Of a stretch of DNA of 64,000 nucleotides, positions 10,907 through 57,218 are shown in pieces; position 1 is the first letter of the stretch; every line of letters begins with the position of its first letter. The stretch spans positions 31,620,001-31,684,000 of the forward strand of contig OX597834.1 in NCBI GenBank assembly GCA_951406725.2, given 5' to 3'. The stretch comes from Octopus vulgaris (lineage: Eukaryota). A program made the translations under genes and the position numbers. A model generated the notes under the pieces. The model searched no databases. It was not told where the DNA came from and saw only the letters and a program-made list of their open reading frames with translations.

Positions 10907-11983
10907 ATCATCATCATCATCATCATCGTTTAGCGTCCGTTTTCCATGCTAGCATGGGTTGGACGGTTCTACTGGGGTCTGTGAAGCCAGAAGGCTTCAT
11001 CAGGCCCAGTCAAATCTGGCAGTGTTTCTACGGCTGGATGCCCTTCCTAACGCCAACCACTCCGTGAGTGTAGTGGGTGCTTTTTACGTGCCACCCGCAC
11101 TGGGGCCAGACAGAGCTGGCAAACGGCCACGAACGGATGGTGCTTTTTATGTGCCACCGGCACGAGGGCCAGGCAAGGCTGGCAACGGACACGAAACGGG
11201 GCGGTGCTGGCAACGGTCGCGAAACGGAAAGTTCTCTTACATGCCACCGGCACTGGTAACACATCTGCAATTTCCATTGATCGATTTCCATTGATCGATT
11301 TCGATTCTGATCCTCACTTGCCTCAACGGGTCTTCACAAGCAGAGTTTTGACATGCCACCGGCACTGGTAGCACATCCGCAATTTCCATTGATCGATTTC
11401 GATTCTGATCCTCACTTGCCTCAACACGTCTTCACAAGTAGAGTTTTGTGTCCCATGAAGGGAAGGTATGCATACGTAGGCCGGCTCCATCCCATGTAGA
11501 AGGCCACGGGTTATGGACTCACTTGTCCTGCCGGGTCTTCTCGCGCACAGCACACTTCCAGAGGTCTCGGTCTCTAGTCATTTCCTCAGTGAGACCTAAA
11601 GTTCGAAGGTCGTGCTTCACCACCTCGTCCCAGGTTTTCCTGGGTCTGCCTCTTCCACAGGTTCCCTCAACCGCTAGGGTGTGGCACTTTTTCACACAAC
11701 TATCTTCATCCATTCTCGCCACATGACCATACCAGCGCAAACGTCTCTCTTGCACACCACAACTGATGCTTCTTAGGTCCAGCTTTTCTCTCAAGGTACT
11801 TACACTCTGCCGAGTGTGAGTACCGGCATTACACATCCATCGGAGCATACTGGCTTCATTTCTAGCGAGCTTACGCATATCCTCAGCAGTCACGGCCCAT
11901 GTTTCACTGCCATGTAGCATGGCTGTTCGTACACACGCATCATACAGTCTGCCTTTCACTCTGTGCGAGAGGCCTTTTGTCAC
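10907..11983 (-). mobile_element. 5'-truncated RTE-clade LINE: ORF C-terminus, ~600-bp 3' UTR and (GAT)n tail
   Basis: RTE-type C-terminal peptide runs into a 3' UTR ending ...GGAAAACGGACGCTAAACGATGATGATG. Confidence 0.93.
11519..11983 (-). pseudogene. RTE LINE ORF, post-reverse-transcriptase C-terminal fragment
   Basis: Motifs KGRLYDACVRTAMLHGSETW, RRLRWYGHVARM, GRGRPRKTW and RDRDLW are typical of RTE-clade ORFs; no internal stop, but 5'-truncated. Confidence 0.93.
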
Positions 11984-14275: not shown

Positions 14276-14518
14276 TATCATTATTGTTGTTGTTGTTGTT
14301 TTTCTTCTTCCCCTTGGTCTTCTCCTTATTATTATTGTCATTATTATTTTCCTTATTATACTTATTATCATTATTATTCAGTTTTATTATTTCCTCTACT
14401 TCTTTTTCATCATCATCATCATCATCATCTTCATCATTATTGTTATTATTATTATTATCATTATTATTATCGTTATTATTATTATTGTTATTATTATTAT
14501 TAATATTATTATTATTAA

Positions 14519-16814: not shown

Positions 16815-17036
16815 TATATGTATAAATGTAAGATCCAGGGATCGAGGTGTAGGAAGAAAGTTAGCTTCAAGCAATCCATAGTGAATATAAAAAAACAGCT
16901 TTCAGGAACAATTTTGATTTATTGAGAGGGAAGGTTGCAGATTTTTTTTACCTTTACCGAAGAAGAATGAGCTGAGAAAAAGTTCTTTTTATATTCCTTG
17001 GTGGGCCACCAGGGTTGCTGAATGTGTGAAAAAGAA

Positions 17037-17260
17037 TACAAGAGTTACAGAATGGAGTATCGGAAATCTGGGCTATATATGTTTCATAAAGAATGGAACC
17101 TCAGAAGTGGTAAAATCCAAGTGAGGTGTATACCACCAGCTACACTTCAGAACAGTAACTGCAGTATACACCTCACCTGGATTTTACCACTTCTGAGGTT
17201 CCATTCTTTATGAAACATATATAGCCCAGATTTCCCATATTCCATTCCATAACTCTTGTA
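17037..17260. repeat. Near-perfect hairpin: 97-bp arms, 30-nt spacer
   Basis: 17037-17133 is the reverse complement of 17164-17260 with 5 mismatches counted by eye. Confidence 0.97.
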
Positions 17261-17295
17261 TATATATACACACACACACACACATATATATATAT

Positions 17296-17461
17296 CTGTC
17301 TTCCCTTCTCTGGATCTTTCCTTCTCCTATGTTTCCGACGAAGAGGTCCACTCGAAACGTTAAACCCTCCTTCTTTTCTTCTTTCCTGAGCATCCAATAA
17401 TACTATATTTGTTCCATGTCCTCGTGTTGTTGTGTTTTTTTGTGCTGTCTTGTTTGGATTA

Positions 17462-17466
<5 letters not shown>
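17296..17466 (+). mobile_element. Short (TA)n-flanked element with a minimal hammerhead-like motif (Penelope-like terminal fragment)
   Basis: GTTT-CCGACGA-A-GAG-gtcca-CTC-GAAA-CG-TT-AAAC at 17331-17365. Confidence 0.65.
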
Positions 17467-17991: not shown

Positions 17992-18009
17992 TATATCATG
18001 TTAAGCCAG

Positions 18010-18180
18010 TAATCCCTACTCATTTTTTTCTCTCTCTATTTTTTTTCCTCTCATCCCTTTCCGTCAAAGAGCAAAGGCTTGAAATGTCAAAGACTTTTCC
18101 ATTCTTCCTGAATGTCAAATTAATACACCTCCTTGTTGTTCCTTCACCTGTCTTTGTCTTTTTTCTGTACATTTGAACTA
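18010..18180 (+). mobile_element. Short element of the same family as 48515-48652 and 57055-57218, with a degenerate hammerhead-like motif
   Basis: CTTT-CCGTCAA-A-GAGC-aaag-GCTT-GAAA-TG-TC-AAAG, followed by the shared downstream TAATACA...TTGTTGTT...CACCTGTCTTTGTCTTTT. Confidence 0.6.
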
Positions 18181-18205
18181 TATACATACATACATATATA
18201 TGTAT

Positions 18206-18500
18206 AAAAAATACAAACTGGGACAAGAATGCAAAACATTTTGATGACGACACAAAAAACACGGATGGGACATTCAAAGCCTTCAATCTGATTAATCTTG
18301 AGATTGCTTCAATCTGGCCAGCCCCAAGGAAAAGCTAAGCTAAGCGCACTAGATTCCTTGGGAGAAAGCTTCGAATGTATACAAAACAAGGACAGAAAAA
18401 TGGACGATGTTACATGAATATGAATACAAAAATAATACGTAAAAACAATAATAGTAATATTAATAACAATAACAGGACATCACGAACAGGCATCTTTCGA
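18206..18500 (-). repeat. Dispersed (TA)n-associated repeat sharing its end with 48825-49000
   Basis: Reverse complement GTTTTGCATTCTTGTCCCAGTTTGTATTTT versus GTTTTGCGTTCTTGTCCCATTTTTGTATTTT at about 48969-48999. Confidence 0.6.
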
Positions 18501-24242: not shown

Positions 24243-24608
24243 CATCATCATCATCATCATTTAACGTCCGCTTTCCATGCTAGCATGGGTTGGACGGTTC
24301 AACTGGGATCTGGGGAGCCCGAAGGCTGCACCAGGCCAGTCAGATCTGGCAGTGTTTCTACAGCTGGATGCCCTTCCTAACGCCAACCACTCCGAGAGTG
24401 TAGTGGGTGATTTTATGTGCCACCGACACAAGTGCCAGACGAGGCTGGCGAACGGCCACGCTCGGATGGTGTTTTTATGTGCCACCGACACAGGTGCCAG
24501 ACGAGGCTGACGAAACGGCTACGATCGGATGGTGTTTCTTACGTGCCCACAGCACGGAGGCCAGTCGATGCGGTACTGGCTACGGCCACGTTCGGATGGT
24601 TTTCTTGT
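24242..24608 (-). mobile_element. RTE 3'-end fragment with three internal UTR modules
   Basis: Matches the 10907-11240 3' UTR, with repeated TGCCACCGACACA...CGGATGGTGTTT modules. Confidence 0.92.
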
Positions 24609-48514: not shown

Positions 48515-48762
<248 letters not shown>

Positions 48763-57054: not shown

Positions 57055-57056
<2 letters not shown>

Positions 57057-57215
57057 GTTGGAATTTACAAAAAAAACAAAACAAAAGACAAAGACGGGTG
57101 TGTAAACAACAAACGAATGTACTAGTTTAATGCTTGGGAAGTGAGAAAGTCTTTTATGCTTCGAGCCTAGATTCTTCAGCAGAAAGGAACATGAGAAAAT
57201 AAACAGAGTGAGAAA

Positions 57216-57218
<3 letters not shown>
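57055..57218 (-). mobile_element. Short (TA)n-flanked element of the 48515 family, with a degenerate hammerhead-like motif
   Basis: - strand CTTT-CTGCTGA-A-GAAT-ctag-GCTC-GAAG-CA-TA-AAAG (57186-57151), then ACTTTCTCACTTCCCAAGCATTAAACTAGTACATTCGTTTGTTGTTTACAC. Confidence 0.65.

Follow-up and report, generated by a model that had tools for sequence, protein, structure and literature searches.

Lünse, Weinberg and Breaker reportedly described in 2017 small hammerhead variants of Penelope-like elements (PLEs) that cleave as dimers and occur in very large numbers. The hammerheads in the pseudo-LTRs (pLTRs) of metazoan PLEs are mostly single motifs, which have been attributed to truncated PLEs (Cervera and de la Pena 2014, PMC4209133), and Penelope has both its promoter and its start of transcription inside the pLTR (PMC2377424). 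With an anole PLE in vitro, reverse transcription starts internally, uncut RNA is the main template, protein is needed for hammerhead cleavage, and hammerhead mutants are without effect on insertion (PMC11167929); in a PLE hammerhead, changes of G8 abolish activity (PMC11167929). Natural variants with low but detectable activity include U4C in a viroid and A6C in phage Bcep176 (PMC3088659, PMC7151607). A CX2-5CxxC linker marks the Neptune and Nematis PLEs (PMC8557442), and a repeat annotation of octopus describes recently active PLE families, with ribozymes unmentioned in the available part of its text (PMC13282606); further related literature is found in PMC6765202, PMC6155905 and PMC10085705.

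The window analyzed here, a 64,000-nucleotide stretch of Octopus vulgaris DNA, harbors four short repeats which we confirmed to be the 3' ends (pLTR pieces) of two PLE lineages that appear, as judged by their linker motif, to be of the Neptune type. These repeats belong to one superfamily with roughly 10^5 copies in the genome. We favor the view, with a probability of about 0.78, that the short copies are 3'-end pLTR copies of two autonomous Neptune-type PLEs, likely made from uncut RNA by the element's own enzyme.

The four window copies and their family

An earlier note on this DNA had described four hammerhead motifs, and all of them are present at the places and strands it gave, with readings beginning at GTTT 17331 (+), CTTT 18057 (+), TCTTT 48526 (+) and CTTT 57186 (-). 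The elements that carry them can be aligned over about 150 nt and terminate at (TA)n. A profile built from 30 copies elsewhere in the genome matched the window at exactly these four places (nhmmer E-values 4.8e-44, 2.5e-7, 2e-6 and 2.3e-4), with no further match at E<=1 in the whole window, and a second independent profile found the same four (E 4.4e-36 to 1.3e-7). When both profiles were run on 72 ten-kb stretches (68 at arbitrary positions and 4 flanking the window; 719,900 bases of a 2.8 Gb genome), 35 matches were obtained vs. none in the reversed control, which extrapolates to about 1.4 x 10^5 matches genome-wide (Poisson range 0.9-1.9 x 10^5, ignoring clustering and fragments). Exact patterns gave 248 and 14,378 matches in the genome, with 0 in the reversed controls.

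Clustering on the 3' flank alone separated two lineages: A, with stem I GTTT/AAAC and loop II TCC, to which the copy at 17331 belongs, and B, with stem I CTTT/AAAG and loop II GTAG, to which the copy at 48526 belongs; the copies at 18057 and 57186 were assigned to B by the B profile. The lineage A piece (17296..17465, + strand; subfamily A1; nhmmer E 4.8e-44) is a solo copy with (TA)n flanks; it lacks the 5' part of the element up to about 67 nt before the predicted cut and has an ORF-linked copy (L150) as its closest reference. Its minimal type I hammerhead (17331..17365, +), with a predicted cut after 17361, comprises stem I GTTT/AAAC, the core CCGACGA (U4C, as in the parents), the extra A and then GAAA-CG-T-T, with two changes in stem II vs. 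the family GAGC-TCC-GCTC. An older and decayed solo B piece lies at 17997..18180 (+; B profile nhmmer E 5.7e-23; 5' end set by eye), and its hammerhead (18057..18092, +; core CCGTCAA; predicted cut after 18088) has kept U6 and is predicted to be dead because G8 is lost. A working dimer of the 17331 and 18057 motifs was ruled out, as the latter is without G8.

The solo B piece of the CTGTGGA subfamily (48516..48652, +; nhmmer E 4.4e-36) ends in (TA)n and, by clustering on the 3' flank alone, groups with B2/B3 copies; its hammerhead (48526..48563, +; predicted cut after 48558) carries the A6U core CTGTGGA, which ranks among the most frequent in B (24 of 87 copies), with the extra A changed to G. 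On the minus strand, a solo B piece between (TA)n runs (57056..57217; nhmmer E 9.6e-30) contains a decayed hammerhead at 57151..57186, read in the sequence as CTGCTGA, GAAG and CA, and C6 in this core occurs at the frequency expected for a T-to-C change from U6, being present in about 2% of the exact-pattern B copies. The copies in the window are passive and in all probability inactive. Remnants of PLE coding sequence in the window were ruled out by tblastn, which gave no match. In Rfam, no hammerhead family matched 17300-17420 or a clean parent copy, and the whole window gave solely microsatellite-driven miRNA matches among 150 of 865 matches listed; a generic repeat search of the window was likewise dominated by microsatellites.

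The window has other repeats as well. Just upstream of the 17331 copy is an inverted repeat (17036-17133 and 17164-17261; 93 of 98 bases, with a 30-nt spacer) that ends at TA-rich sequence and has one 77% relative in the 720 kb of sampled genome; it may be a MITE, or two ends of another element in inverted orientation. A dispersed repeat at about 18200-18490, apparently on the minus strand, abuts the (TA)n after the 18057 copy and has two partial 86% matches in the sampled stretches. Short tandem arrays at 11076-11195 and 24406-24606 have a related 62-63-bp unit.

Autonomous parents and their variant cores

The linkage to GIY-YIG/RT ORFs that the earlier note had proposed to look for was found in full-length parents of both lineages. 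Longer A copies have a common CA-rich upstream sequence, and one of them (L019/L074) leads to a same-strand GIY-YIG C-terminus; a search with this domain yielded young A elements with intact frames as well as an ORF-containing tandem array (L138-140). At five loci (L141-144 and L146), an open frame of 1008-1009 aa lies between two hammerhead-bearing pLTRs, which are 6.17-6.20 kb apart as measured for L141-144. The B parent (L304) has an open frame of 1119 aa and two pLTRs 4573 bp apart, and B partial tandems with GIY-YIG were also found. The A and B parent proteins, 68% identical over 724 aa, both contain DKG, YIDD, a CX4CXXC linker (CSRSRCNTC and CSRPRCRTC) and the GIY-YIG motif, i.e. a single ORF with RT and C-terminal GIY-YIG as in PLEs, with the CX2-5CxxC marker common to Neptune and Nematis placed before GIY-YIG; Pfam on the parent frame gave RVT_1 at E 0.0012 and GIY-YIG at E 0.012, both below the curated cut-offs. 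In L141-144 and L304, upstream repeats of about 480-1500 bp are 98-100% identical to the downstream end, an arrangement of partial-tandem pLTRs with a variably truncated upstream copy that is again that of PLEs. The window copies are homologous to the parents' pLTRs, with the same profiles matching both. Thus the minimal type I PLE hammerheads proposed in the earlier note agree in structure and occur in both pLTRs of full-length parents, and its abundant family of solo pLTR pieces linked to PLEs held as well, since full-length parents carry the same motif.

Association with the coding region was also seen from the side of the endonuclease. Among 30 B loci chosen by endonuclease alone, a B element lies downstream on the same strand in 27, with T6 in all 26 readable cores. 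For lineage A, the element lies downstream in 4 of 4 extended loci with endonucleases closest to that of L074 (L148-151); within 1.5 kb of A endonucleases, it was found at just 3 of 30 loci, as expected from the longer A 3' UTR. In the ORF-linked copies nearest to the 17331 subfamily the frames are broken, and the intact frames are in a sister subfamily with a U-U mismatch in stem I. Contigs from presumed RNA runs cover the parent's pLTR and 5' region, with no joints listed, although such contigs cannot show ends.

The first family from the Pfam GIY-YIG scan, a 781-aa PLE, was rejected as the parent, with the element near 2 of 20 extended loci and on the opposite strand in both. Its members (L037 and L046-L049; G000:C16:20834500-20841000 and others) form a second young family of PLEs, with a CX4CXXC linker and open frames of 781 aa, and their flanking repeats of 300-500 bp gave no match to the canonical hammerhead descriptor.

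The earlier note conceded that no single copy has a perfect CUGANGA core. This is true of the window, but it does not reflect decay for the most part: the cores are the parents' own, and the imperfect cores are largely inherited rather than decayed. Because the source lineages themselves have U4C and A6U as fixed variants, the missing perfect core is no weakness of the hammerhead reading. The lineage A core CCGACGA (U4C) is also present in young intact elements: among L138-147, 14 of 16 hammerheads have it, as do 36 of 59 readable A copies chosen on the 3' flank. The lineage B core CUGUNGA (A6U) is found in about 14,300 exact-pattern copies and one intact element. Cores were counted in 151 copies with readable cores (64 A and 87 B), chosen off the core from 271 matches, a sample that over-represents young subfamilies; as the core call permitted up to six substitutions, some conservation is built in. 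In A, position 4 is C in 35/64 and T in 27/64, with A6 in 62/64; in B, T4 is present in 83/87 and T6 in 82/87. Conservation in both sets is 93% or more for each of G5, G8, A9, the extra A, GAAA and U16.1. When every other base of the B motif was required to match exactly, position 6 is A or T at 14,378 places and A, C or G at 496, the first 100 listed of the latter comprising 69 C, 19 A and 12 G by hand count; from this tally, about 97% of copies have U6 and A6 is at the level of back-mutation. A canonical family consensus had also been tried by way of a guessed CTGATGA pattern (the 248 matches above); it was set aside as a minority in samples chosen off the core, and combines a real U4 subfamily with likely CpG decay of CCGACGA. 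The youngest intact A elements (L138-L147) have a U-U mismatch in stem I (GTTT/ATAC) besides U4C, so that the hammerhead looks weakest in the subfamily that was active most recently.

These repeats have the fold of known PLE hammerheads in common with them, but not the textbook CUGANGA core. Across the 151 copies we found the features of a minimal type I PLE hammerhead: stems I and II, an extra nucleotide after A9, G10.1-C11.1, GAAA, the palindromic 15.2-16.2 and UH. Folding prediction returned inactive hairpins for monomers and no active dimer, to which we attach no weight. Some structural arguments of the earlier note had to be narrowed. Pairing in stem I is kept as it had claimed, but given that the A/B split was made on the 3' flank alone, the covariation amounts to a single between-lineage event (G-C in A vs. 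C-G in B) that is not repeated. Its loopless stem III palindrome is present, but the palindrome proper is ACGT, the longer AACGTT taking in core positions 14 and 17. Position 17 varies with the subfamily among U, A and C, and the rule that the cleavage-site base is never G applies to B, with G in 0/87, but not strictly to A, with G in 3/64. What is new here is the pair of lineage-fixed core variants in autonomous elements, together with a sharp 5' boundary of the short copies (see below) in keeping with a mechanism recently described in vitro, the kind of element itself being known; no A6U hammerhead was found in the literature searched, including the available part of PMC7151607. The set of Lünse et al. 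2017 may contain one.

5' ends, possible selection and the probable origin of the short copies

The 5' ends of the short copies bear on the question of how they were made. We mapped 69 A copies (the first 70 of 6,886 matches listed to a motif 30-63 nt downstream of the cut, minus one duplicate) against ORF-linked references, with a few rows over-extended by the aligner: none starts within 5 nt of the cut site, 1 starts downstream of it, 21 start in the next 95 nt upstream, 43 start within -10 to +2 of the A in an initiator-like TCATT placed 111 nt upstream of the cut, and 4 pass this A by at least 3 nt. The stop rate at the initiator-like site is about 49x the internal rate. Among the first 100 of 1,574 listed A copies containing the initiator-like A, 86 stop there by hand count, the pattern excluding C at -8. 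In 6 of these 86 junctions a G lies just before the A, for which a copied cap is conceivable, though too weak to count. The idea that copies start at the cleavage site was rejected given 0/69; since about 3 cut-site stops would be expected by background, this zero denotes no excess rather than depletion. The boundary is weak in B: among the first 100 copies listed, 29 stop at the matching site and 71 continue, a rate similar to that at an internal site near 60 nt (11/48), and TA microhomology could therefore explain the B boundary; among B1 junctions from 31 distinct loci, 7 are at the cut site vs. 7 at another TA microhomology. The short unit also occurs as inverted pairs, an arrangement characteristic of PLE insertions, at L116/L117, L151 and L320 and at G000:C1:29337310-29337369, and L320 has a short tail past the pLTR end that resembles the start of the parent's 5' UTR.

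Most simply, the majority of short A copies can be read as cDNAs of an uncut leader that extend from the end of the pLTR back to the start site, with both the start and the uncut state being inferred. The hammerhead lies about 100 nt before the parent's 3' end. We surmise from the motif and the boundary that transcription starts within the upstream pLTR at the initiator-like TCATT, that the PLE enzyme would nick (TA)n DNA, that reverse transcription would begin internally, at the pLTR end near the RNA 5' end, and that the enzyme would then read through the intact hammerhead to fall off at or before the first base of the RNA. The product would be solo copies of about 215 nt or shorter, with priming at the downstream pLTR giving the rarer long copies. 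As a ribozyme, the hammerhead would be slow, would need a dimer and probably protein as well, and would act between both pLTRs of one full-length transcript, which lie 4.6 or 6.2 kb from each other.

The hammerhead still appears to be under selection. Three clusters accounted for 76 of the 97 B copies that span the region, the other 21 being set aside. Between the clusters, 21 of 95 flank columns differ; the same rule, applied to the 36 columns of the ribozyme, singles out H17 alone, with N7 being polymorphic (A/G vs. T). N7 and H17 are the two positions that the hammerhead consensus leaves free. Fisher's test gave p=0.037 for 2/36 and, after post hoc removal of N7 and H17, p=0.001 for 0/34. 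As only N7 and H17 vary while the flanks diverge, these data suggest continued selection on the B motif after A6U; the result is suggestive but not final, because part of the sample (L108-137) was chosen on the ribozyme itself.

One might argue instead that the unit of about 215 nt is a self-propagating non-autonomous element (SINE-like or a solo retrozyme), with its own internal promoter and copied in trans by the PLE protein, as the sharp 5' boundary of lineage A, the same 3' end in most copies and the putative promoter kept in solo copies would all be in keeping with this. That boundary, however, is equally predicted by internal initiation on the parent RNA, and the diagnostic letters are common to short copies and to ORF-linked or long ones (L150/L151 for A1, L304 for B1, L117 and L137 for CTGTGGA, L111 for CTGTAGA). 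Nor was a head-to-tail array of the short unit seen in the loci examined: among L001-030, the 72 ten-kb stretches and the parent-linked loci, there was no tandem short unit, just inverted pairs and ORF-containing tandems. We thus consider a self-propagating unit unlikely, and the retrozyme-like tandem element that the earlier note had entertained fails on the same account, the subfamilies examined all having ORF-linked or long copies. That decayed repeats resemble a hammerhead by chance is hardly credible, even though no window copy has the textbook core and Rfam is without a hammerhead match, since the family motif, located in pLTRs of intact PLEs, possesses all other core bases along with the palindrome and both stems, and the control searches were empty.

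A more serious contender, though still the less probable one, holds that the motif, especially with A6U, is no longer a ribozyme and has been kept as a protein-binding or promoter element or was merely inherited. A6C strongly lowers activity in Mg2+ (PMC3088659, PMC7151607), U4C reduces it in vitro, insertion in vitro was unaffected by hammerhead mutants (PMC11167929), and copies that start at the cut site are not in excess. On the other hand, B subfamilies vary within the ribozyme solely at N7 and H17, with H17 never G in 87 copies, and stem I pairing has been kept via a two-sided change between lineages. This alternative is compatible with the same origin of the copies as in our preferred reading and differs from it on function alone. 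The natural U4C and A6U parents offer a direct test of whether selection keeps cleavage or just the fold.

This genome has two massively amplified autonomous lineages with cores predicted to be slow. We speculate, with considerable reserve, that A6U may be a working, protein-assisted ribozyme selected through several bursts of an autonomous PLE, that PLE hammerheads would then be tuned to cleave slowly, leaving the capped leader uncut to act as the template, and that tens of thousands of solo copies would document in the genome where PLE transcripts start and that initiation is internal in vivo; that all of these hold together is doubtful. Descriptors based on CUGANGA would miss most such elements in this genome.

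Comparison with known systems

The variants said to have been described by Lünse and colleagues in 2017 are like ours in their reduced palindromic stem III, PLE association and very large numbers, and may include U4C or A6U cores. The viroid U4C and Bcep176 A6C hammerheads are altered at the same positions as here; in contrast to these rare cases, the changes here have become fixed in lineages numbering thousands of copies, with U instead of C at position 6. Animal non-LTR retrozymes (bioRxiv 10.64898/2026.07.22.740005; PMC7229834) resemble our repeats in being non-coding and PLE-pLTR-related, in having a type I hammerhead and in that monomers occur; unlike these retrozymes, which are defined by tandem units, no tandem was seen here and the unit lines up collinearly with its coding parents at their 3' end.

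The PLE pLTR hammerheads of PMC4209133 share with ours a short helix I, an extra nucleotide between 9 and 10.1, G10.1-C11.1, the palindromic 15.2-16.2, two copies per full element and a majority of single copies. They differ in that U3-A8 is the core variant reported in the available text, as opposed to U4C and A6U here, in having a stem II of 7-8 bp vs. 4 bp, and in that the lineage A short copies, unlike that set as described, have a defined 5' limit. With the Neptune and Nematis PLEs with C-terminal GIY-YIG (PMC8557442), the parents have in common the order of RT, CX2-5CxxC linker and GIY-YIG, partial tandems, inverted pairs, microsatellite targeting and a pLTR hammerhead, the clade of the parents being putative. 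The element Poseidon PAc of the green anole (Frangieh et al. 2024, PMC11167929) is alike in its start of reverse transcription near the pLTR end, its uncut template and its AT-rich targets; its hammerhead overlaps the start of the ORF and was assayed, whereas the hammerheads here lie in the UTR, have variant cores and are known from genomic evidence. The large record left by insertion ends in the octopus genome agrees with this single in vitro study in pointing to uncut RNA and internal initiation.
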